A DNA stretch of 61,370 bases, the filler included, from Circinaria calcarea (lineage: Eukaryota): NCBI GenBank assembly GCA_051942165.1. It is 4 parts of 4 records of this genome, joined end to end, with 100 filler letters (N's around TTAATTAATTAA, not from the genome) between each part and the next. Parts side by side here need not be neighbours in the genome. Positions count along the whole stretch, not along the records: positions 30,745 to 46,008 come from JAVECS010000377.1; 3 more parts are not named here. One strand, written 5' to 3'. Positions 15,278 to 46,108 of the stretch are shown here, in pieces; positions within the stretch are counted from its first letter, which is position 1, and each line of letters begins with the position of its first letter. The notes under the pieces are model-generated. The model was given only the letters and a program-made list of their open reading frames with translations. It did not search any database and was not told the DNA's origin. A program made the position numbers and the translations under genes.

Positions 15278-15377
15278 NNNNNNNNNNNNNNNNNNNNNNN
15301 NNNNNNNNNNNNNNNNNNNNNTTAATTAATTAANNNNNNNNNNNNNNNNNNNNNNNNNNNNNNNNNNNNNNNNNNNN
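15278..15377. other. Artificial contig-joining spacer N44-TTAATTAATTAA-N44
   Basis: Exact 100-nt symmetric construct carrying stop codons in all six frames; interrupts SAH1. Confidence 0.98.
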
Positions 15378-30644: not shown

Positions 30645-30744
30645 NNNNNNNNNNNNNNNNNNNNNNNNNNNNNNNNNNNNNNNNNNNNTTAATTAATTAA
30701 NNNNNNNNNNNNNNNNNNNNNNNNNNNNNNNNNNNNNNNNNNNN
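30645..30744. other. Artificial contig-joining spacer
   Basis: N44-TTAATTAATTAA-N44. Confidence 0.98.
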
Positions 30745-30886
30745 GGGTAGCTGTGGGGGCGAGACCAAGGGAACGGGAGCCAAGGAAAAGGAAAAGGCCA
30801 GTTCCCTGGCGATGCTGAGGGGGGTAATCGATAGTGCCGTCAGGAGAAAAGGGAAGGGAGGAGGTGGTGGTGGTGGTGGTGAATAA
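30745..30886 (+). CDS. Possible 3' end of an unidentified gene cut by contig start
   Basis: Open frame GSCGGETKGTGAKEKEKASSLAMLRGVIDSAVRRKGKG(n)E*, followed by simple-repeat 3'-UTR-like DNA. Confidence 0.3.
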
Positions 30887-31927
30887 GTTTCAAGGTCGTA
30901 GCCTGGTAGTAGGAGAAGTAGGAATTCGAATAGGAAAAAGGGCAAGGGGGCGATGAGAGAGAGCATGAGATGAGATGAGATGAGATGGATACTGCATAGG
31001 TACTAGTGCACTGCACTGCAGCGATGAACATCCATAAAGTAAAGTAAAATTACCTTACTCCCTGTCTATCCGAAAAAATAGATCCGAAAATAAAATCCCC
31101 TTATCTTTCTTCCTTCTTTCACAATGTATTCTCAATGTATGTACCTGGGGCGATCCCGATCCCGATCCCGAATCAAACCCCGAATCAAAATCCAAACCAA
31201 GCTACGCACTCAAACCAAGCCACGCACAAGGTATGAGGCAACGAGAGGGCATACGATATACGATATGCGGTATCGGGTATCCCCTCCATCTTTGGTATTC
31301 TTTCCTTTCATTTTCTATTTCTTTCCTTTTCTTTTCAAAGAAAAAAAATGGTATTCCATCTAAAATAAAATAAAATACATGCATATCTCTCTCTCTGGTT
31401 TTCTAGTTTTTTTCTCAAGTTTTCTCTCTCTCAAAAAAGAAAAGGGGTCGTTAAAATGAAATACGATATTTCCATAAAGCTAAAGAGAGTAGGTATTCCG
31501 TAAAGGTTATTCGCTGGCTCGCTTGGTTCGGAGACAAGTATAAGGATAAGGGAAAAAGCCGACTCTACCTACGGCCGCCCGCAACCCTCCCCCTTCCCGG
31601 ATTTTTCTTTGTCAAAAGTGGGTATGGTAATGCGACAAACAACCGATTTAAAAGAAGCCCATGCAAGCCAGCTTATCAAGTCTTTCCCGAGCAAGTGCAC
31701 CTGTCACCTGCACCTTGTACCCCGACCGCGCATGCATGCATACAAAGGCCACCATGCATGCAAAACCTAAAATCCATGCAATGCACGGGCGGGAAGCCTA
31801 AGGGAAATCACCCTGCAGATCCACCGAGCAAATGCTACGATATTCATCATCATCGAAAAGATGACATTGAATCCCCAATCTTGCAATCTCCGACCCTCAC
31901 ACAGCACCCAAATCGGTTTTAACAGAC

Positions 31928-34820
31928 TCACAACTCAGGCTTTCCCATCTCTTCGACAGCTTGCAGAATCGCCTTCATCTTTTGCGGGTCGGTTTCTTGC
32001 TCGAGGAACTTCAACCCCTCCCTCGCCTTACCGCCGCAAGCTCTCCCGAGAGTCAAAAAGGCAAAGTGGCCTCCGACGACGGGTCTGGCGAAGAAATTGG
32101 GGCCGGGGAAACCCCCATCGCCTTCCGTATTGTGGAGGTCTGTGAATGGACGGTCTGAATGGAAGCGATGTTAGCAAGTCTACTACCTCTGCAGGTCTGG
32201 CGCCAGATGCGTCTCCGGAGATCTAGTGGAAGTGAATCAACGTACCGGTTACTGTTTCATTAACCCAAAGCGCTACACTCTCTAGGATCTCCGCTCGAAC
32301 GTTCTCACTTGAGACTGCCGCAGTGAAAAACTCCCAATCGGTCTTCGTGTACAAATGTCGACTATCAAGCGGTAGGCCATACTTTTGACGAACAGCGTGA
32401 TACCAGTCGCTTTGCATTTTGTAGATGTGCTGCGGTACAAAGCCAGTCTTATTTTTAATTGGGCCATCACCTGGGAGTGGTTTCTGATCGCCATGACCAA
32501 AGGCGCCGAACGACGGCGAAGTGACAGAGGGAGAAGAGTCACCATCGAGATGGAAACACAGAAGAGAATCCGCAAACAGGCTGTAGAGGGTAGTCCATGA
32601 GCCATACCAGTCATAAGCCAGCTTGGCATGAGTGCCATCCCGTGAAATGGCAAGTTCTTCCCACTTGTCGATGTAGACATCCGATATATTCTAAACCGAT
32701 GTTAATACCAGTGTTTCGATTATATATTTAAGGACTTTTACCTTGTAGTGTTTGGCATCCTCCGTCTCTCCTACAAGATCGGCCATCTCGCTCATAGATT
32801 TGATACCAATAATACCCTTGAGAGCAAGATTAGCTTGGAGAGCCAGCCAGCCGGCAAAATCATCGGTGGAGACTATTCAATGTCAGAAACTAGACGACGT
32901 TTTTAGGTACCAGCACTTACGCTGATTGTGTGGTTCCAGTGTAAATTCGACAAGATACCCAGTCCACTGCTTCCAGAGGCTGTAGCTCTTCATCACCCAT
33001 TTCTTTGCCTGTTTTATTCCTTTATCTGATCCACCCCAACGATCATCGATGCCAAAAATATCGTCCTGTACTCCCAACTGTGTAAGCGCAAAGGGACTGT
33101 TCTCCGGATCAGAATCCATAATGTCTGAGCCGGAACTCGACCAAACCGAGCCAGCAGCGACCCCGGTCTCGTATATCAAACTGTTAACAAGTGCGAGGCC
33201 CATAGTGAGCATATCTCCACACTCTTCGACTGGCATGTACTCATCATTCCCGTCTGGATGCCCTGTAGCGTTGGGAAAATGGGTCCCGAGATCGTGCATG
33301 GAATACGTGTTTGAGTATTGTCCGCTAAGCATGTGTTCGATCAACGGTTCGAGTAAATATGCCAGCCATCTGGGATTGGTGTAGAGGAAGAACGGGAAAG
33401 ACGGGAAGATCACGTCAACGGTCTGAAAGTTGCCATTTGAAGAAATCTCTTTCAAAAACAGGATTGGGTTCTCGGGGGTTCCTGAAAAGCTGGTCGCTCC
33501 CATGGCTTGACGTGCAGACAAGGCAACAATATCTACATAATCTTCTGCACCTGATGCATAGGCGTCTATAGCAAGCTGCCTGGAGTAATTCGCGGCGAGA
33601 GTTGCAGCGTTTTCGTAATCAAAGTGGTGGAATGTCAGCATCGCCTCGTCAGAAGGGAACCACGCCTTCCAAAGAGGTTTCATGAAAGTCAAGCCTCTTG
33701 CAGCAGCATACTGTACTACCGGGTCTTGGACATGAGCAATCGTAAAGAGGACACTGTCAGTCGAAGATACCGATTCGTTCAGCTTGAAGGATTTGGCAAA
33801 TGCAAAGACAGGCTCTTCATCCATTATGCTGCGATAATTGTCATCGATTTCATTTTGCAGAGTGCCCGTCTTCGAGAATGCTCGACGCAATAATGCAGAT
33901 GTTCCAGATTCGTGGCGTACGTCCTGTAGGTCATTAGTGCAAATCACTATCAGCATTTTATGAGAACTTACCGATGGAGCAGTAAAGTGCAGAGTTCCCC
34001 ACTCAGCCCGATCTTGGTACTCGGTCAACATCTGCTCAGTCTCTCTTCGTACTTTCCATGTCTTGAGGCCTTTGTCGTTGTTGGCGGTTTGGGTTTCGTG
34101 TAGATCCCACACCACTCGACTTCCTCGATCTCCGCTGACCCACTGTCCGTTAAGGTCAACGTATATATCCACGTCGAAATTGCCCTTGACATGCACCGTC
34201 AAATATGAAGCGGGTAGAGCTTGTCGAAGAGTAGAAGTGGGCGTGATAGGGGAAAGAAAGGAGAGTACTATCTCGAGTGCTTCGGTGGATTTTGAGTAGG
34301 ACGGGGGAGCCGGGATGGAATACGTCAGGTTGGTCGTGGAGGCATCATAATGGGCACCTAAGTACGTTGGGAAGGAGACGTTGAAGCTCGACGGGAATTA
34401 GCGACGAATGTATTGTTAGGAAGGTAAAGACCTACCCATTGTCTTCATGAAGTGGTCCTAACGAGTCCTGTGGTCTCCCCAGCAGAGGGTAAACGTATTT
34501 CGAATCGGAGACGGTTGCCAGTACCGAGAAGCCAACCTACCACGCTCATCGGTTAGTACTAATGCTCTTCATCGAGACCCAAGCCTGATGCCTTGAAGGC
34601 CCGTGGACCATTCAATAGCGGCGACGAAACGTACCTCTTGACCTGTCCAGAACATCGGCCATTTGGTCCATGGTTCTTCTCGCGCATCAGCGAGCCAGGT
34701 GCTGAGGTAGGGATTTCGGACGATGAGCGGAAGCACTGGCGGATGTAATTTTGAGGCTCCACATGAGCTGCTGAAGAGTGCTAAAGCAGCAGCAACGGCC
34801 GCCGAGCAGAGGCGCAGCAT
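31928..34820 (-). CDS. gtaA: GtaA-type secreted glutaminase-family protein (DUF5127/DUF4965/DUF1793)
   Basis: Signal peptide, PLIVRNPYLSTW, FLKEISSNGNFQTVDVIFP, HDLGTHFPNATGH..EYMPVEECG, YGLPLDSRHLYTKTDW, FFARPVVGGHFA; ends KPEL*. Confidence 0.92.
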
Positions 34821-36027
34821 GGTACTTTGTCTTTGGTCCTACGGAGGCTTGAAGGAGAAGGAGAAGAATAAGAGTGGGATCCAGGCGTCAGTTCATCCGC
34901 ACAAAGGGTTCAGGCCTTTTCGCACACTCGAGATTCAACGGAGAGGGGGAGGAATTTTGGGGATGGCCAGTAATAAGGTGCCAGCGGATGTTGTCAGCGG
35001 ACGGACGGCACCAGGCTGGACTCTCACGATTTCTTTTTGTCCATCACACGATCTCATCAGCTGCATGTACAATTTTGCCGAGGGCATGCGGCCTAATGCG
35101 ACGTGATGTAGCCCCGGGGTTCCAACGGGAAATAGTTGTTAGCGCGAGACTCGAGACCCCTGTTCACTCCACCACAATCACGTCCAGTCCCAGGCGGATC
35201 AGAGCGATGGTTTGGATGATATCTTCCGGCCTCCCTGCCATTTCTTCCCATAACTTTAGAGCGCGAAACAGAGTCATTGCAAGGGTTGCGAAAGAACTGC
35301 GCTAATAGCCTTTACCCATCGGTCCCTGCATGTCCCTGTCGATCACTGGCAAGCCCCGGGGATCAGGGCCTCCGCGTGACCCTATCTACTCCGCGGCACG
35401 GTACAGATACTTCGTATATGTGAGATGAAGTCAATCTGGAAGGCCGGCCGGACGGGGAACAGCTTCCGACTGGCAGGATGCCTGGTACCATTTCCAGGTA
35501 CTATGGTGATGGAGAAAAGTCGTCAGAGGGATGTAAGAGCCGTATCTGCATTCATTGTATGGACGAACTTAGCCGTCTCCCTACTAGATTTGCCACAGGG
35601 CTGAGCACTCTCTCTACGTTCAGAGTATCTCCCAATGTTACTGGAAGTATGTCATCCGTTCAAATCATTCCACCAGTAGAAACATCGTCACCTGATAGGT
35701 ACCATGGAGGTCGCTAAAGGCCCTGAATTAGAATAAAGCTTATACCATAATCGTTCCATTTTCTGATTGGCTTCAATCTACTTGCATTTTTCCAAGTTCC
35801 AACTAGTCTGGATTTGGTGCGTCATCACGGAATGAGCGACGCGAGTTCGGAGTACCTGCTGTGCTGGATTATAGTGCCTCGCCTTAACTACCGTTGGCTA
35901 AGGTCTGGTGGTGTTCGTCGAACAATGTTTCCAACACTTGACTGTCCTGGTTGTCGCTTGCTGTCTATACTCGCGGTCTCCATTTGATTCGTTGCATACA
36001 CTAAGCTCTTGCTTCCATTCTGTATAA

Positions 36028-37844
36028 ATGAAGAAGCTACTTGGCAAAGCCAAGGCCTCCATGGCAGACCTAGCAGATAAGCATGCTTCAAGCCCCGCCG
36101 AGGGATACTCCCAAGAGCAGGTTCCAATTCAAGATAACGTGTCATCGGAGATCCGACCTCCCACCCAGCTGGACGTGCTACGGTACCGCTACCACCATGG
36201 GGCCAACCTCGGGGGCATCTTTGTTTTGGAAAAGTGGCTCTACGGCAGTATGTTCGAGCCGGAAGCAAAGGGAGGAAGTGAACTCGACGCCGTGTCTGCG
36301 TATGTAACATGTCCTCCGTCTCCTAACTCAATACTTACCGAGGCCACTTGGCAGATCCATCGCTGTTCGTGGTGTGGACGCTACACGGGAGAAGTGGGAA
36401 GCTCACTGGTCCTCGGCTCTCTCCGACCATCCCGACTTAGATTTCCTGGCTGCCTATTGCACCTCAGTTCGACTACCCATTGGATTCTTCACGCTCGGCA
36501 GATTCTTTACGGCACAGACTCCATTCCATGGAGAGATTTTCAAAGTGTATGATAATGCCTGGGCGGCAGTCAAGATTCTCTGCTCTCGTCTGCACAAGGC
36601 TGGTATCGGAACTCTCATCGGTAAGTATATGTTACGATATAGAATTCTCATCATCTTTATTTTTAGGACAGATAGTCTTCTCTACAATCATTACATGATG
36701 GACGAGCGCCTTTTCATTCCGTCTCCTCTCTAACTGATATTCAGACCTCCATGCTCTCCCTGGCGGAGCCAATGATCAACTCCATTCGGGCACTTCGAGC
36801 GGGAAAGCCGAATTGTGGGGTAACAGCGGGTATCTCAATGCCGCAAGACGGTGTGTCCAGTTCATAGCAACTGAAGTCAAGTATGGGCAAGTCCCCGGTT
36901 GCATTGGGATTCAGCTTTGCAACGAAGCCGAATACGGAGCCAGAGGAATGTACGATTGGTATACCGATGTTATCAAGGAATTATCCCTTCTCGACTCCAG
37001 TATCCCAGTCTATATCAGTGATGCATGGGATCTGGATACTGCCCTAACCTGGGCCTCTAAGCACAACAGCACAGGCACTTCGACTTGTCCTATTTTCGTA
37101 GATACACACAAGTATTACACATTTTCCGAAGCAGACAAAGCCCAGTCACCACATCAGATAATAGCCCGCATTCCCTCCGAACTAAGTGAAGTGGCATCCA
37201 GAGTCGGTGATGTCTTTGGCCGTGGAGCCACCGAGGCTGTAGTTGGGGAATGGAGCTGCGTGCTTGATCGCGAGACTTGGGCCAAGGTGGATGCCGCCAA
37301 CCGTGAAACGCTTCTACGCGAATTCGGCGACGCTCAGTGCCAACAATGGAGGAAGAACTCGGCAGGAAGCTTCTACTGGACCGCAAAAATGGACTGGATG
37401 GACGGTGGAGAATGGGGATTCTTCGAAATGACCAAGAAGCGTACCATCAGTCCTCCGCCAGAACTCCTCCTCTCCTTCGACGCTGTTCGAACCCGAATCG
37501 ACCAAGCAATGCAACAACGTGAGAGCCTCCGAACCCAAGCATATTCGGCTCACGAGGAATACTGGACCCGGGTATCTCCCAAAAACTATTTCGAGCACTG
37601 GCGGTACGGGATCGGATGGGACCTTGGTTTCTCTGACGCGCAGACGTTTTTCGGCATGAGAGCGAACGGAAGCTTACCCGGACCGAAAATGGGAGGGGAC
37701 TCGATCGGGGCTCTGGATGGGTGGATCAGAAAAAGGGCGAGGGAGGGTGGGATCGAAGGGGATTTCGCATGGGAGTGGGAACAGGGGTTTAGGCAGGGAG
37801 TACGCCATTTTGAAGGGTGTGCAGGCATCGGGAATGCCAAATAG
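36028..37844 (+). CDS. Glycoside hydrolase family 5, cytosolic glucan 1,3-beta-glucosidase-like
   Basis: RYRYHHGANLGGIFVLEKW, SVRLPIGFF, DLHALPGGAN, IQLCNEA (acid/base), VDTHKYY, VVGEWS (nucleophile); introns ~36300-36354 and 36621-36744; no signal peptide. Confidence 0.93.
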
Positions 37845-38339
37845 CAGAGATTAAAGTCTCCGATCTAAAAATTCCACAAGTCCCTCCCCTTGTATGATAT
37901 GAAGTATATATGAGCTCTCCCCTAAACGGTGAGGACAAGTAGCACTTGGATACGCTACTTACCGTATCCCGATTATCATTGCAGTCATTCTTTTCCTTGA
38001 ATATATCAGCAGCTACAGCATGCATTAGATTGGTTAGGGCACTGATTTAGTTTTCTCTCCCAAACAAACTGCCAACTTCTTCGGCTTTGCGATACGGCAC
38101 TGTCAGCGCATTTCTTCATCTGGGAGAACAGAAATCAATAGTGCCGTGCTCTCAGATATGAGGTCGGAATTATCTGAATGAGTTCAGGCAATACCGAAAA
38201 TGGTGGCAATGGCTTATTTAGATGAATATGAATATACGGATCTCCTGGAACACGACGAAGTATGCAGGAAGAACTGGAATATAAAAAAGATAAAGAAAAA
38301 TAAAATAATAATCTTCCCGACGGAGCGAAAACCAGTGCA

Positions 38340-38847
38340 GAGATTGTTAAATTATACGAATTAGAAGGTTATTGAAAACTAGTTTTTGACGTCAGGCCTC
38401 ACGAATGGGCTAATAGTTTCAACCTCGGAATAAGTCGATAAAGCTCGACGATTATTATATACCTGGAAAAATTGTTTCATCACGAATTTAAAGGGTTTAA
38501 AAGCTACTAACTTAGTCGAGCATGCGACCAACTTGAAACTCGGGTTAAAACCAGTAATAGTGTAAGGCCGTAGAATACTTTACTTGTAAAGTATCTAAAG
38601 CTAAGGTATGTGGTAATGTGAGGCACGAGCAATACGATGGCTATACGCAGTGTGTGCGAGAACTAATCATTCCAGAGGAAGAAGTGTGCGAGTGAAAGGT
38701 TTTCACTATACGCCAAGACGCCAACTAAACGAGGTATCGCCACCCCCTAACCGTAGGGCCTGACAAATAGGGAGATTACTATTATACACCTTAAGGGAAA
38801 GGGAGTTCGCCAATAAGATCTTCCCAGAGATGGAGGACGCAGGCATT
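38340..38847 (+). mobile_element. Degenerate Ty3/gypsy pol fragment (region just upstream of RT)
   Basis: After removing the nested insert one frame reads *VDKARRLLYTWKNCF...KATNLVEHATNLKLGLKPVIGRLLLYTLREREFANKIFPEMEDAGI, with in-frame TAG (38380) and TAA (38431). Confidence 0.8.
38561..38765. mobile_element. Solo LTR (205 bp) nested in the gypsy fragment
   Basis: TGTAAGGCC...GGCCTGACA termini (8/9 inverted match) flanked by 5-bp target duplication AATAG at 38556-38560 and 38766-38770. Confidence 0.9.
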
Positions 38848-39217
38848 CCACTCAAATTTTTTGGCAGTAGAAAATCAATGAACAGATCACGCACCGAGTA
38901 GCTATGATTTACTGAATTCCTACGAAAGCTTTCTCAACACTCAAGATAAAATCTTTTGTGTCATGCAATAAATTGTTTTTCTAATCGAGTAAAATACTAA
39001 ACCCTAATCAAGCGAAAATCTAATTTTTTTGGAGGCCGAAAGAAAGGCCAGAGTGCATAAATTTTATTCGGTTCGGAAAATCTTGCGCCGATAGTAACCC
39101 CTTCCACCTTTTTTTTTTTTTATCTCAGGGCATTCCAAACTCGGCAACTTCCAATCTTGTATATAATTCTCGCGCTATTTTCCCCTTAACTCTCTATCCA
39201 GAATTTCTTTAGCCACA

Positions 39218-39809
39218 ATGTTTGGTTTTAAATATCCTTTCTCCCTATATCTCCTTTCCTTACCGACTAACCCAACTTCTAACCTATCCCAGGTAAAAAC
39301 CCCCTTGACACCCGCGCCTTCCTCGTCTTCCAACGCCTCCACCGCTTCCTCCAAACCCTTAACGTGCTTTGGCCCTCATCGCTGGCGCGTCCGTCGGTGT
39401 GCTCACCTTCCCCAAATTCCATCCCCCAGCCACATCCGTCGTTCGAGCCGCCGAAGGCCTACTCATAAGCTCCGCCTCAATCCCCGTTGTGTCAATCATG
39501 TTAGCGACTATGCTTTTGTTCTGGTATGAGGATTATGAAACGGCGACGAGGATGGATCTCGCGGTGCTGTGGTCGCCGTTGGTGTTGCTTGACTGGTCGA
39601 TTGTGGCGCTCCTCCTAGGAATACTCCTGTGGTATGTCGATAATTGCCCCGAGGTGGCGTCAACTTCCATGATTGTTTTTGTGGGGCTTCTGCTCGGCTA
39701 TACGATCTGGATTAGTTTGGCAATGTGGACTACTATGAGTCAGAAAGGGGGGTTAGGGCGTGAAGAGCTGCTGGTAGCTGCGAAGGAGAAACGGATTACG
39801 AGCAAGTGA
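39218..39809 (+). pseudogene. Small 4-TM membrane protein gene with a 1-nt frameshift
   Basis: MFG/KNPLDTRAFLVFQRLHRFLQTLNV (putative intron 39225-39292, weak GTTTTA donor) is out of frame by one base with LALIAGASVGVLTF...LAVLWSPLVLLDWSI. Confidence 0.55.
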
Positions 39810-40329
39810 TCTAAACAGCTTTATTTGTACTGCGCGTGAAATAAATATCAATACAATTATCATTGTCGCTCCGCAAATCAATACAGGAAAATTCCTAGGT
39901 TGTATTACTTGTTCAATTGATGTTTATTCTACAGATGCGGGCTGGGGAGAATTCCCGCCTAAGAACAGGGCGTCCAGTATTAGCTGGACCCTGTTATGCG
40001 CTTTCCTCGGCTATGGGGAAGGTGCGTTGTTTTTCGTGTACATTAGAGCGGGGCTTCCCCCAAGCAAATAGAAAATTTGACTACATGAATTTGGTGTAGA
40101 CAGGAGTACACGTTCAGATTTCACGCAGGCTGTTATTCGCCTGGAGCATACTATTCGTTTAGAACGTGGAAGATGCGCGGAAGAATGCTCGGTGCCATCG
40201 CTGAGATATGGAGCGAAAGGCCCGCCTAATTAGCGCTGTTTCCCGCGCTTGCTTCTCCACGCGCTCCAGTCATGACATTCGCTCTTTTTTCACTGCTATA
40301 ACTTTAATCGTACTGCGCCTTTGCCGATT

Positions 40330-42564
40330 ATGTTATGCGATATCTGTCAAGGGTTTAATGTACATGCCTTATTCTCTTTAGCGGCCTCCAGATGCGCGAC
40401 TGAGAAACCGAGATTGGCACGACATGGCGTGTTTCCTGAATTCCAAGGCTTTCCAGAATTCTACAAGCACCATCATGGCCTTACTGCTCTTCGGTCGAGT
40501 GCTAGAGGAGGCTGTCGGCTGTGTACCTTCATCTGGCAGTCTTGGGCTCAGACCATGCCAGCGGACGTCATCGACCGCGAGTGGATTGCTGCAGGCAAAG
40601 GCGAGGAGCAGATATATCTGGGTCTAAGCAAGTGGGCACCGGAAAGTCAGGGGATACCGTATTTGACCGTTCTGCAAAATACGCTACGAGGCATCCAACG
40701 TAGCTTGGGCATTTTTGAAGTCTTCGTTGAAAGAGGTACGCAGCTATATGTGCTATTGCTACCGAAATCCTTTTTGGCGTAGTTCCTGGGGAATGTAACT
40801 AATGGCAATGTCTATTAAGGGAATGTCCCTGTAGGGTTTGAGCATCTCCTCGCACGAGAAGTATTTCTGTCTTCTTCGTCGGATGCATGTCTATCTGTTG
40901 CCGCCGGATGGCTCAGTGATTGCTTGAGCAAGCATTCAATTTGTCGACGATTATACCAAGAGGACAAGCCTCTCCCGACACGGGTAATTAATGTCGGCTC
41001 GGCTGGTGAAACCGATGAACCTCGTTTAATTGTGACCAACGGCGCATATGGTTCTTGGGCAGCTTTAAGCTATTGCTGGGGTGGCGATTCTACTTTTATT
41101 CTGAAAAGCAGTAACCTAGAGGGTATGATGAGGAGCATCCCCATTGAAAGCTTCCCGACCACTTTACGCGATGCTGTGCGAGTTACACGCAGCTTAGGAA
41201 TACGCTACTTATGGATAGATGCACTGTGTATACTGCAAGACTCTCGAGAAGACTGGGCCGCAGAGGCATCCCGCATGGGGGATGTGTATAAAGGCGCGAA
41301 GGTCACGATCTCAGCAATTAGTTCCCCAGGAACTGGGTTTGGGATGCTCAAAAAACGTGAAGCTCCCTCATTATGTTGCCAGCTTGACTGGGACTCTACT
41401 CAAGATGGAAACCCCACCCCTGTATACTTGCGTTCCGGATCTCACTTGTGGGACGTGAACATGACATCAAGTCCTTTGAATACTCGTGGTTGGACACTTC
41501 AAGAAGCTCTTCTGTCCCCAAGGACTCTCTCTTACGGAGCGCAACAGATGATATGGGAATGCCAAGAGTGTCGTATCGACGAGGGAGGTAGACCTGTAGC
41601 GCCAGGCGACAAGTATAGAGAAAAAAAGTTTATACAAGATCTAATTGGTGCTAAACCCAATTATAGGAAGCAGGCTTTACTACGCAGACTGGCGGCTCTA
41701 TCCATGCCGAAACTGCTTAATCCAGTGAAACTCGAAATCCAAAAACCGTACGATCGATGGTTTGACATCATACTTGAGTACTCATCGAGGAGGCTCACCG
41801 TAGCGACCGACGTGTTACCAGCTCTTTCCGGTCTTGCAAGATCATTTCAGAACCCACTAGCCGATCGATACTGTGCTGGCCTTTGGGCAAATGATATTCT
41901 GAGAGGACTGATGTGGGTTCGGGAGCCTCATAAGTCCCTAGTTCCCAGTAGCATTGTTGAGCAGCCAAAGCCTCTTGATTATTATGTTCCGAGCTGGAGC
42001 TGGGCAAGTATTTCTGGTCGAAAGATCACGTTTTTCTACCCTCCGACAGACGGGTATTGCGTGATCGAGGAACAGGCTAAGGTGCTTGAGGTCATGGCAA
42101 CACCCAGCCTGAACGACCCTTTCGGGCAGACACGGGGTGGATACCTCGTGATCCAAGCTTCGTACTATGACATCCGAGACCCGCGCACCAAAATATATGA
42201 GGATGTCCCCAACGACAGCCCGATATTACAATCCAAGTTGTGCGATACATACACCGGTGTCCCCGCATTTCAAGTCGAATTTTGCCAGCAGCATTAAGAA
42301 CACAAAGGGCAGAAGTTTGGCGTGCTACTCATGGCAAAGTGTTTCACGGAACGAGGCATGGAAACCCGTAAAGGTTGGACGAAATTCCCCGACATAATCT
42401 TGCTGGTCGTAGAGACCACTGGTCGGCAGGAGGATGAGTACCGACGTGTCGGACTTTACAAATTGAGAGCCGGGGGCTTTTCGTGGGATGATATTACGGA
42501 GATGCCATTCTTCATTGAAATGAAGAGAATCAAGTGGAGGTCGAGGAATATTCGCTTGGTGTAG
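40330..42564 (+). pseudogene. HET-domain (heterokaryon incompatibility) protein with in-frame nonsense codon at 42295-42297
   Basis: MLCDIC, intron 40736-40819, LPTRVINVG, AALSYCWG, LGIRYLWIDALCILQD, MGDVY, PLNTRGWTLQE, PSWSWAS; the frame continues past TAA to YRRVG..IRLV*. Confidence 0.88.
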
Positions 42565-43715
42565 ATGTTTCTATTCGTGGATAAGAAGTAGTTTAAAAGA
42601 ACTACATCATATATTTTCTGCATATTAATCAATATGTTAATTATCCGAATATCAAGGCGTCTGATCGAATCGAATCGAAGTTTTTATATACTAATAAAAA
42701 AAGCTACTCCTTTATACTTGTGCTTTTCTATACCCCCTCAATACCTCTTTCCAAAGCAATCATGTTTCCCTCCCCAAGACGGAAAGCCAGGAAGCGACAA
42801 CCTTTCAATTCGGAGGTGTGTACAATAGATATACCTGGTTATTCACGAGCAATTTTATACCCTAAGTCTCAGTGGGGAGTTACCAAGCTTTCCGGGGGCA
42901 GGGGCCGGGGGTCGCCCGGGATTTTACTACCGACCCTGTATATAATAAAGAAAAGCGTACCAGTATTTCGCTATATACCGAAACCTAGAAATATCATAAA
43001 AGAGCAGCAGCGGCCCCCCTTTTCCCTTAGCAGCCAGCTTCTCAGGGGGGGTTTTTTTTAAAAAAAAAATAGAAAAAAACAGAAAAAGAGCGAGGGTGTC
43101 CTCCTACCTATCGCTTCGTCTTTTCTCTTCTTGGTCATTCATTTGATTACATGGGCAGGATGTTGGATGTTGAACGCGGATGCGGATGAAAATAGTGTGA
43201 TTTGGATTCTCAGAGGGGAATTGAAATACCAATCAGCAGGCAGCAGGCACATCTTACTCTACCCCTAACTTTACCATTCATCTTTTAGATCGAGGCAACT
43301 CAAGGTAGATAGATAGCTTGGGCACTAAACCACCAACTACTATTACACACCGCTAGCGACAAAGATCACAATCTGTAATTGCAGATATTGACTCGAAATT
43401 AATTGCATGAATGTAAAAGTACAAAGGCAGTCTCATCTATGGTAGTGACATTTGGAAAAAACGCATGGCATGTCACCAAATGTAATCAAGGACAGCCATG
43501 ATAGCCCCTTTCAGTCACCATCCAGTAAATTTCCCTCTCTGCTACTACCGAAATCCATCGACTTTGTCCTTGGAAAGGTTGAAGAGTACGTAAACCGATT
43601 GAGTGTGAGCTTTGTCGAAGACACAAGCCCTATGCAATGAACATACCCAACCCATATCTCAACTTGGCAAAATTCCTTGAATCGCGAATGCTGTAGCGAT
43701 AGACTTAAGGGTCGC

Positions 43716-45998
43716 CTAAGTCCCCGGAGGAGGAGGTGGAGGAGGTAGATCACTTGGAGGCGGCGGCGGAGGAGCATCACCTGGAGGTGGGGGTGGTGGA
43801 GGAGTCCCCGCGGATCCGTTTGGATTGTAGTGCTGGAACAATGCACCAAGACCGGGAGGAGCCCCAAGACCACCAGCCGTACCACCGAGACCAGGTGGAG
43901 CGCCCATACCTGGTTGAGCAGCATATCCGCCATTCGCATCTCCATAACCAGCGCCAGGATATCCGCCGTAGCCTCCATAACCTCCTGGTTGACCACCTGG
44001 TGGGGGTGGGGGAGCTTGCTGTTGCCAAGGCGCAGCGCCACCCGGAGGACCTGGGGGAGGAGCGCCATAACCGCCAGCCTGCTGCCCATAACCATAGCCA
44101 TCACCACCACGTCCACCAGCAGCCCAAGGAGGTGCAGATCCACCATCTTGGTTAGTATAATCATCGCGACGGCCATGGTCCTCGCCACCACGCTGCCACG
44201 GAGCTGCAGCGCCAGTTGGGCCACGTTGCCAAGGCTTCACATCGCGGTCACCATCACCATAAGCGTCTCCGTTTCCATTTTCATACCCGCCAGGTCCTGC
44301 TTCAATACGTTGTGGAGCTTCACCGTTAGGAGCAGGTGCACCACCAGACAATTCTTGCATGAGTTGCTGTAAAGTTGATTAACACTAGGTGACAATCAGT
44401 GATAAAACGACATACCTCGTATTCTCGATCTACTGCATCTCCACCACCAATACGTCCAGCCGGTGCACGACCAGGGATTGCACCTGGTGCGTCATTGCGC
44501 CAATTGGCTCCACGCTGCCTGTCGGGACAGTCTCTGGCCATGTGACCAGCGTTACCGCAGACACGACAGATGATGTTGGCAGTAAAGTTGCGCTGCTCCG
44601 GACAGTCATATTTGCGGTGACCGATTTGACCACCTGGTCCTATTAGTGCGCTGAAATACAATGCAAGTCTAGATTACTTACAGTTCTGACAGGCTTGATT
44701 CTCGTCATCACGTAGAGTACCGTTAAGTGCTGCAAGCTCTCGGAGTTGATTTCGCTTGAGTTCGTTCTGTCCTTCAGGGATGGAGGCAGCCTGTGACATG
44801 TTACAACGACATCCCATAACATAATACCTCAGATCTTTTGAGCTGAGGATGGGTGTGGGCTTAAATACCGTTTCGATGACATTATGAATTAGCTTCTTTG
44901 CCTTGTTAACCTTCTCTTCGGTGTCGGCCATAATTAGGCAGTGCAAGTCTTCTTCCTGGTTGCTGGTGTGAGCTGCGTCAGAACGGCCTTTTCCTTCTTT
45001 TACGGATCCTTTGCCACGGATAGCAATCTTCGCCTGTGATTCAGTCTCCATTTTTTTCAATGTGTTGCCTCGAGGTCCGATAAGTAAGCCAACTTTAGTA
45101 CAGCAACGCGAGCTATGTGTTAGTCTATGTATGTCAATTTGTAAAGCAATGTGTGTATAGGATCAGTCTGGGTTAGTGGTAAGACATGCTGCATCCTCCG
45201 AAGGATGCCGCATGCATCACCAAAAGGGAAAGAGAGTGCAAAGAAAAGATTAGGAGTTAGAGGGTTAGTTATCATACTGAAGTTAATCTCTGGGTAATCA
45301 TTGACCGGCACATAGACTTTCTCCTGTGTCTTAGTAGGACGCCTATAGTCTGAAGGCGGGTGATAGTTAGGTATGACCTTCATGGCCTTTTCAATTTGCT
45401 TGTGGCGTTCATCTTCAAGACGCTTGCGGTAGCGGTATTCGCGAGTGTTGACACGTCGCCCAAAGTTATCATACTGGGGTGGTGGAGATGGAGACCTGTT
45501 AACAGGGTTTGATTAGATTACAGCTGCAAGGAAATGGAAGATGGCAGGAATTGCTCACCTATCTCCGTCCGCAGGGACAACGTCGTTGATTCTCAGTTTC
45601 TCGCTAATTTCTTGGATCCGGAGGTGCAAAGTGTAGGCCTCCAGCTGCTCAGTGGTCATGTTTGCTTTGATCATGGTAGTCAATCCCATCAGACCAGCTG
45701 CCTTATTCTCCGAGGCATCACCCCACCGATTTCTCTTCTTGCGTCTCCTCTCACCAGCCTCAACAGGCTCGACTGTAGGAAGATTAGCCTGAGTTATGGA
45801 ATGGGCATGCGAAGAACAACGTTTCATCTCTGGACTGCGCCCACGCTTGTAGCTGGAGTCGGATAGGCCCGTTGAGGGTTGAGCAGGATTGTAGCCTCCA
45901 TCATCGACTGGACCGGTGGAGTCGCTACCCCCGAACCTACGACGGTTTCCAAGAGGGATGTTGTTCGAACCTGTGATACCTTGACTACGCCACGCCAT
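43716..45998 (-). CDS. MSL5: Branchpoint-bridging protein BBP/SF1 (KH-QUA2, zinc knuckles, Pro-rich tail)
   Basis: [88 protein letters not shown]. Confidence 0.97.
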
Positions 45999-46008
45999 GC
46001 TGTGGACA

Positions 46009-46108
46009 NNNNNNNNNNNNNNNNNNNNNNNNNNNNNNNNNNNNNNNNNNNNTTAATTAATTAANNNNNNNNNNNNNNNNNNNNNNNNNNNNNNNNNNNN
46101 NNNNNNNN
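46009..46108. other. Artificial contig-joining spacer
   Basis: N44-TTAATTAATTAA-N44. Confidence 0.98.

Follow-up and report, generated by a model that had tools for sequence, protein, structure and literature searches.

A branch-site-laden, selectively retained intron in the branchpoint-bridging protein gene of Pezizomycotina as a candidate autoregulatory element

Among fungal splicing-factor genes, srp2, the orthologue of SRSF5, has a long retained intron that is stabilised in a Neurospora mutant of nonsense-mediated decay (NMD) (PMC4379411). Here we describe a gene that resembles it in several respects, from a 61,370-nucleotide stretch (filler included; hereafter the window) of the genome assembly GCA_051942165.1 of the lichen-forming Lecanoromycete Circinaria calcarea. 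The gene encodes the branchpoint-bridging protein (BBP, or SF1), and its second intron, intron 2 (45093..45277, minus strand), is laden with copies of the branch-site motif and selectively retained in RNA. As with srp2, this is a splicing-factor gene with one unusually long intron among short fungal introns, the intron is partly retained and brings in a premature stop, and its position has been conserved over very long times. In contrast, the sequence of the srp2 intron reportedly shows no notable conservation among Aspergillus species (PMC4379411), whereas the modules of the BBP intron are conserved across classes. With alternative splicing coupled to NMD (AS-NMD) and regulated intron retention in general, as found for SR, hnRNP and ribosomal proteins, the BBP intron shares a conserved cluster of the encoded protein's recognition motif, an unproductive isoform and a premature stop. 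It departs from AS-NMD cases such as srp2 in that the putative sensor is made of branch-site copies rather than of enhancers or silencers, and in that the regulator would be a constitutive early spliceosome-assembly factor.

Two other systems have motifs of the same kind. The long non-coding RNA Gomafu/MIAT contains tandem UACUAAC repeats that bind SF1 (PMC3116199). No splicing takes place at these clustered branch-site motifs, which presumably hold SF1 and so influence the kinetics of splicing. Unlike the Gomafu repeats, which lie in a vertebrate non-coding exon and act in trans, the motifs considered here are intronic, lie in the regulator's own gene, are fixed relative to its splice sites and have a putative autoregulatory effect in cis. 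Quaking autoregulates through ACUAA-type sites in its own transcripts (PMC5695090) and resembles BBP as a KH-QUA2 protein that reads ACUAA(Y) and feeds back on its own RNA. However, it is a different, animal protein, its control lies at isoform-specific 3' ends and at translation, and the accessible text mentions no decoy branch sites at splice sites. In yeast, RPL30, RPL22, YRA1 and DBP2 are subject to intron-mediated autoregulation, in which the product binds its own intron and blocks splicing. Those cases use a structured mimic of the normal RNA target, whereas the sites in the BBP gene are plain linear copies, multiplied and misplaced. What appears to be new is that the putative regulator is a constitutive reader of a core splice signal and that the putative sensor is formed by copies of this signal in the wrong places, close behind the donor and across the acceptor. 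Control of BBP/SF1 by way of an intron in its own gene is not described in the accessible full-text literature, two surveys of conserved fungal RNA motifs included and subscription journals and supplements outside the scope. In our assessment it is moderately probable that BBP regulates itself by negative feedback through decoy branch sites in intron 2.

The second intron of the BBP gene in Circinaria calcarea

All features of the gene given below lie on the minus strand. Intron 2 is a phase 1 intron with the termini GTATGA...AAG, which joins PEINF to (I)GLLIGPRG and separates exon 2 (45278..45495), encoding the end of the SF1 helix-hairpin domain (...VNDYPEINF), from exon 3 (44869..45092), encoding the core of the KH domain. 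A preliminary description had placed a 185-nt intron that splits the KH domain at 45277 to 45093, and these coordinates and those of the motifs within it were all borne out. The intron contains four copies of CTAAC, along with CTAAT, CTGAT and TTGAC; the full TACTAAC heptamer has no match in it. CTAAC occurs at a background of 0.057 per 100 nt in the window, which predicts 0.10 copies for an intron of 185 nt (four or more, Poisson P = 4e-6), and none of 5000 dinucleotide-preserving shuffles of the intron had at least four, indicating an excess beyond chance. Eight other RNA-supported GT..AG introns of the same genomic piece have 0–1 CTAAC each.

From its 5' end, the intron begins with a sub-optimal donor, GTATGA (45272..45277), followed at +9 to +29 by a cluster of putative decoys (45249..45269) made up of ACTAAC (45264-45269), TCTAAC (45256-45261) and CCTAAT (45249-45254), all too near the donor for branch-site use. 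A pyrimidine-rich tract (45222..45247) lies 3' of this cluster, and the two together look like a 3' splice region without an AG. Next is a hairpin (45178..45221; 5+6+7 bp, loop UCGG) which ends directly at a mid-intron ACTAAC (45172..45177, consensus CACTAACC). Beyond it are a CAG (45168..45170), ACTGAT (45162-45167), ATTGAC (45133-45138) and a distal ACTAAC (45119..45124, GACTAACACAT). The distal motif is likely to be the real branch site, judging from its spacing, as its branch A stands at the right distance, 27 nt, from the acceptor. A proximal TAG (45113..45115) lies 7 nt past this branch A, and the productive acceptor AAG sits inside the branch-site-like TACTAAAG (45093..45100), which overlaps the 3' splice site.

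The preliminary description had also foreseen what other choices of splice site would yield, and translation agrees with it. Splicing to the CAG at 45168 is predicted to give an Asn codon and then TGA, and splicing to the TAG at 45113 to add 20 nt, shift the frame and lead to a stop after 18 out-of-frame codons. Retention of the intron gives a product of 271 aa, which stops before the KH domain at a TAA within the distal ACTAAC. The use of the AAG at 45093 as productive acceptor accords with the source-annotated protein of this species (P0032, 588 aa), which has the same intron-2 junction and is identical to our model across it. In intron 4 of the gene (44634-44681) we noted a branch-like ACTAAT after which a TAG 3 nt past the branch A is skipped and a CAG at 9 nt is used. 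Very short distances from branch site to acceptor therefore work in this organism, and on that account a conserved YAG 5–8 nt past the branch A of intron 2 (see below) is borderline usable.

The window is composed of four pieces of ~15.26 kb joined by N44-TTAATTAATTAA-N44 linkers at 15278-15377, 30645-30744 and 46009-46108, and the BBP gene with its intron 2 belongs to the third (30745-46008). Its coding region has six exons (43716..45998; ATG at 45998, stop at 43716-43718). The ATG is only 10 nt from the end of the piece, and because a linker occupies 46009-46108 the sequence past 46008 is not the true upstream region of the gene. The identity of the gene as BBP/SF1 follows from an SF1-HH domain N-terminal to the KH domain (PF16275; Pfam matches with E = 2.8e-11 on exon 1 and E = 3.2e-23 on exon 2), a BBP-type KH domain (KH-I_KHDC4-BBP, PF22675; E = 3.1e-20 with Pfam on the exons) and a CCHC knuckle after the KH-QUA2 region (zf-CCHC, PF00098; E = 5.4e-11 with Pfam on exon 5). 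The KH exon aligns to the solved KH-QUA2 chains of Msl5 (4wal/4wan, E = 6e-21) and SF1 (1k1g, E = 2e-19), and is 97–100% identical to named branchpoint-bridging proteins of many Pezizomycotina; homology thus suggests that the encoded protein binds (U)ACUAAC in a sequence-specific manner.

Our exon model is that of P0032 except for the choice of start, which in P0032 is 57 residues after the first ATG (region 45828-45998), and for intron 3. P0032 reads through this in-frame intron of 78 nt (44791-44868), which is spliced out in the RNA contigs of all four runs considered below. Some named BBP entries in the databases (P0005, P0011, P0044 and P0108) are only 291–392 aa in length. The long intron and its AAG acceptor may have caused gene callers to fail, and are a candidate cause of such truncated entries.

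Conservation of intron position and motif layout

To place the intron in other fungi we scanned metagenome contigs with the KH exon, which gave 411 confirmed matches, and used the best 80 of these, all fungal loci. An upstream exon 2 was located for 77 loci, the other three having no upstream sequence. The ortholog set comprises 76 introns including that of the window, 60 of them distinct, and the other four introns of the same genes were used as controls (149 distinct sequences; 143 for the acceptor count). An intron is present at exactly this position in 75 of the 77 testable loci, L043 and L064 having none. The nearest named proteins of the 75 intron-bearing loci are from Leotiomycetes (23), Lecanoromycetes (21), Dothideomycetes (13), Eurotiomycetes (8), Geoglossomycetes (3) and Sordariomycetes (2), with five unplaced names; these six classes are rough labels, as identity to the nearest match ranges from 49 to 97% and one reference name per class was checked.

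The distinct intron-2 sequences carry six CTAAC in 10 cases, five in 23, four in 21, three in 4, two in 1 and none in 1. At least four are therefore present in 54 of the 60, and no control intron has more than two (0/149). The cluster picked out in the preliminary description is thus far denser than anything in the other introns of the gene, and both the number and the position of its motifs are kept across loci near six classes of Pezizomycotina, which answers the two grounds for refutation that could be computed, a lack of conservation and a density no higher than elsewhere. Intron 2 also differs from the other introns in length and persistence: its median length is 188 nt, with a mean of 4.56 CTAAC over 59 distinct sequences, and it is lost in 2 of 77 loci. 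The corresponding values are 56 nt, 0.41 CTAAC (49 distinct) and loss in 5/71 loci for intron 1; 53.5 nt, 0.50 (48 distinct) and 16/79 for intron 3; 53 nt, 0.35 (23 distinct) and 43/73 for intron 4; and 52 nt, 0.62 (29 distinct) and 8/48 for intron 5. Among the introns of the gene, intron 2 is the one kept in evolution. Compared over their whole length, the orthologs share a median of 69% identity with the intron of the window, and shuffled versions of them reach 58%, which indicates that much of the spacer sequence has drifted and that the modules have been kept.

The shared anatomy of the orthologs begins with a donor of the form GTAYGR, in which +6 is not T in 59/60 sequences; the controls mostly have GTAAGT, GTATGT or GTGAGT. 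A CTAAC starts the 5' cluster at +6..+10 in 56/60 and recurs at +17..+19 in 43/60 and at +20..+30 in 31/60, with at least two copies within the first 30 nt in 53/60; of 4–6 CTAAC, 2–3 stand in near-tandem at +9 to +30. Positions 31–60 are at least 70% pyrimidine in 52/60. The tract gives way to a hairpin that varies in sequence and runs up to the following motif. That of the window has a minimum free energy of -25.6 kcal/mol (z = -4.6), and in a 20-sequence alignment of one group 5 of the 10 predicted pairs show compensatory changes. In this group 92% of the cells are paired, the covariation score was reached by none of 500 shuffles, and registers slid out of place pair at 17–58%; the outer stem was left out of the scoring, since the alignment is out of register there between groups. 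For the whole spacer the z-scores are moderate (median -1.55; below -2 in 18/56), because the unstructured pyrimidine tract is included.

The 3' half is equally regular. A mid-intron CTAAC is found in 56/60 orthologs and a distal one also in 56/60, the branch A of the latter being 20–29 nt from the 3' splice site. An AG, as YAG, lies 5–8 nt past the distal branch A in 54/60, and exactly two AGs lie past it in 54/60. The acceptor is AAG in 44/60 and otherwise CAG, whereas AAG is the acceptor of 5 of the 143 control introns. In 44/60 orthologs CTAA falls within the last 8 nt, as TACTAA|AG, CACTAAC|AG or TACTA|AG, which places the productive 3' splice site inside a branch-site-like motif. Three of these features go beyond the preliminary description, namely the setting of the acceptor within an ACTAA motif, the pyrimidine tract that follows the 5' cluster, and the covarying hairpin in front of the mid-intron motif.

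That description had proposed poison acceptors after both of the distal ACTAAC motifs. The YAG past the more distal of them is kept in the 54 orthologs noted above, whereas the CAG at 45168 is not conserved, as an AG occurs within 10 nt of the mid-intron branch A in only 3/56 orthologs. We therefore rejected this CAG as a conserved poison acceptor and regard it as lineage-specific. In 25/56 orthologs the first AG past the mid-intron motif is 27–31 nt from its branch A, often as YAG|CTTTTGAT. This AG, between the mid-intron and distal motifs, is a well-placed further cryptic acceptor, without a counterpart in the window.

Long conserved fungal introns sometimes host snoRNAs, and intron 2 might in principle host something unrelated to BBP binding, such as a small RNA, a further intron of the nested or twin kind, or an element acting at the level of DNA. 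A C-box-like GTGATGC and a CTGA in the window are what such an account could build on. We find it scarcely credible, given that the motifs keep to one strand and to set positions with respect to the donor and acceptor. A search of Rfam gave no match in intron 2 at E <= 1, nor any in the whole window at the gathering score, and neither string is kept across groups, conservation of the C-box-like one not extending beyond the group of the window; a snoRNA or other known RNA was rejected on these grounds. A nested or twin intron (stwintron) or recursive splicing was likewise rejected, for there is no conserved internal donor, and 34/60 sequences, that of the window included, have no GTRNGN at all. 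That selection maintains intron 2 as a cis-regulatory element of the BBP gene is, in our view, very probable.

The flanks of the motifs bear on which factor would be read. If the decoys captured U2 small nuclear ribonucleoprotein (snRNP), or another STAR/KH reader of ACUAA, intron 2 would tune BBP output to something other than BBP, an account that we consider distinctly unlikely. In its favor, the distal motif is followed by ACTT in 26/56 orthologs, unlike the other motifs, and this ACUU flank would presumably extend the duplex with U2 snRNA by four pairs, which would point to selection on U2 pairing in this intron. In mammals, moreover, QKI and SF1 compete for ACUAA sites (PMC13004596). The decoys, however, are without the U2-extending flank, the first motif being followed by CCTC in 33/56. 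This suggests that they are adapted to recognition of the core motif by a protein, for which the simplest candidate is the gene's own product.

Retention of intron 2 in RNA

Four public RNA runs were used in the form of assembled contigs, which come from environmental samples and represent relatives at 88–99% identity. The joints of introns 1, 3, 4 and 5 are present in all four runs. In run X2 a contig of 1489 nt (record 9) is unbroken over 44870-45493, that is, through exon 3, intron 2 and exon 2, and has introns 1, 3, 4 and 5 joined out; being spliced at these other introns, it is RNA and not carry-over of DNA. The polyA run X5 contains both a spliced intron-2 joint, 45086->45278 (depth 47), and an unspliced contig over 45065-45280 (depth 20), where depth can neither rank the isoforms nor give their ratio and uncovered stretches are uninformative. 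The state of intron 2 in RNA is given for X2 and X5, from the joints and pieces named here, besides which there are 13 joints and 183 pieces. On the same piece of the window, a multi-intron gene similar to glutaminase A (~31770-34820, minus strand; GtaA six-hairpin domain and DUF5127) shows the greatest contig depth in each of the four metatranscriptome runs.

Four of the 80 metagenome loci, L028, L029, L043 and L066, are also cDNA-like. L028, L029 and L066 are without introns 1, 3, 4 and 5 and keep intron 2. L043 is fully spliced, without any of the introns, and shows an exact joint at a CTAAC-AG acceptor; its exonic blocks are mostly 95–100% identical to the genomic locus L052, with 88.6% for the block that ends at the intron-2 junction. 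The contigs of L029 (2195 nt) and L066 (2254 nt) start upstream of the ATG, by 28 and 54 nt respectively, and removal of intron 2 in silico gives them complete open reading frames of 575 and 598 aa. With intron 2 retained, the frame is cut short by premature stops that vary in place among lineages, after 160 aa in L028, 226 aa in L029 and 259 aa in L066. Intron 2 alone is thus selectively retained in several lineages, and an unproductive isoform with a premature stop exists in RNA, at the level of contigs from relatives. The preliminary claim that retention truncates the KH domain holds for the window in the form of the 271-aa product, which stops before that domain.

Retained contigs of this kind would also be expected from an intron that is merely slow, and a second account, which we regard as unlikely, would turn the motifs into an aid to splicing. 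The extra motifs and the hairpin would serve only to help remove a long, weakly signalled intron: BBP on the donor side would recruit U1 through the Prp40 bridge, and the effective distance would be reduced by the redundant branch sites together with the hairpin. More BBP would then mean more splicing, or make no difference to it, and retention would reflect no more than a kinetic lag. Hairpins between donor and branch site do help long yeast introns, and the conserved weak donor of intron 2 could need help. Against this, it is hard to see why a 188-nt intron with weak signals should be kept when the others, of 52–56 nt with standard signals, are often lost. In 44/60 orthologs one motif spans the acceptor, where it could not assist as a branch site. 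Homeostasis would not follow if a housekeeping factor were under positive feedback, and only chance would account for finding the element in the gene for BBP.

The retained RNA, or the product made from it, could itself be the output. It might serve as a nuclear sponge or reservoir in the manner of Gomafu, with 5–6 BBP per transcript, or might encode a KH-less truncated competitor that has the U2AF-binding N-terminus and the helix-hairpin. The Gomafu UACUAAC repeats, which bind SF1, retard splicing in vitro (PMC3116199), the retained forms are abundant enough to be assembled, and in the window the retained frame is open for 52 codons. One low-copy mRNA, however, would be a weak sponge for an abundant factor, and the stop positions differ between lineages as listed above; we therefore think this quite improbable.

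Putative decoy branch sites and a proposed control of BBP level

Negative-feedback autoregulation of BBP, the reading that we prefer, would build on what is known of the yeast protein. Msl5 binds UACUAAC and, together with Mud2, bridges to U1 at the donor (PMC4338336, PMC3378887). Intron 2 pairs weak real signals, namely a GUAYGA donor, an AAG acceptor and a single probable distal branch site, with a surplus of predicted BBP recognition motifs, which appear to be placed where use as a branch site is impossible: two to three behind the donor, together with the pyrimidine tract, and one across the acceptor, with a further surplus motif in mid-intron behind the hairpin. When free BBP is abundant it would fill these decoys, with U2AF65/Mud2 on the adjoining pyrimidine tract. 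The filled 5' decoys might then obstruct U1 at the donor, or tie it up in a cross-intron bridge that is too short, and BBP on the acceptor-spanning motif would mask the weak AAG, so that intron 2 stays in. As the retained form stops before the KH domain, less functional BBP would be made, and the feedback would be negative. BBP has reportedly been implicated in nuclear pre-mRNA retention by Rutz and Seraphin in 2000.

The steps that we infer are that BBP binds the decoys, that retention depends on how much BBP there is, that the feedback is negative, and that the retained RNA is either decayed or detained in the nucleus. Several points weigh against putting them together in this way. The sign of the feedback is unreadable from sequence, and the link between retention and BBP level is of our own drawing. 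BBP-U2AF might prefer the decoy cluster and its strong pyrimidine tract to the productive site; decoys filled even at low BBP would be compatible with slow splicing at all times no less than with a sensor. U2 snRNP pairs with the same motif and could be captured in place of BBP. Two lineages manage without the element: L064 has lost intron 2 and kept introns 1, 3 and 5 (L064:2282-2722), and L075 has an intron 2 of 97 nt with a consensus GTAAGT donor and no CTAAC (L075:1576-1672). Furthermore, the RNA evidence consists of contigs of environmental relatives, which do not yield isoform ratios, and the cDNA-like status of L028, L029 and L066 was judged from intron content and contig ends and not from a record label.

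A bolder form of the same idea, possible but in our view rather doubtful, is an ultrasensitive dosage sensor for the first step in assembling the spliceosome. BBP-U2AF on the pseudo 3' region behind the donor would trap U1 in a dead-end bridge across the intron, a second BBP on the motif that spans the acceptor would hide the weak AAG, and the BBP-coated transcript, detained in the nucleus, would be spliced once free BBP falls. If this is true, the detained transcript would be a post-transcriptional reservoir that sets splicing capacity across Pezizomycotina, and BBP would be the first core splice-signal reader known to be controlled by misplaced copies of the core signal.

How the levels of constitutive intron-defining factors are set is poorly understood, the known feedback loops of splicing factors being mostly those of SR and hnRNP regulators. 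The simple architecture of intron 2, in tractable fungi such as Neurospora and Aspergillus, offers a means of asking whether occupied, misplaced core signals can switch an intron off. The same system would also suit the study of how BBP, U2AF, U1 and U2 compete on one short RNA.

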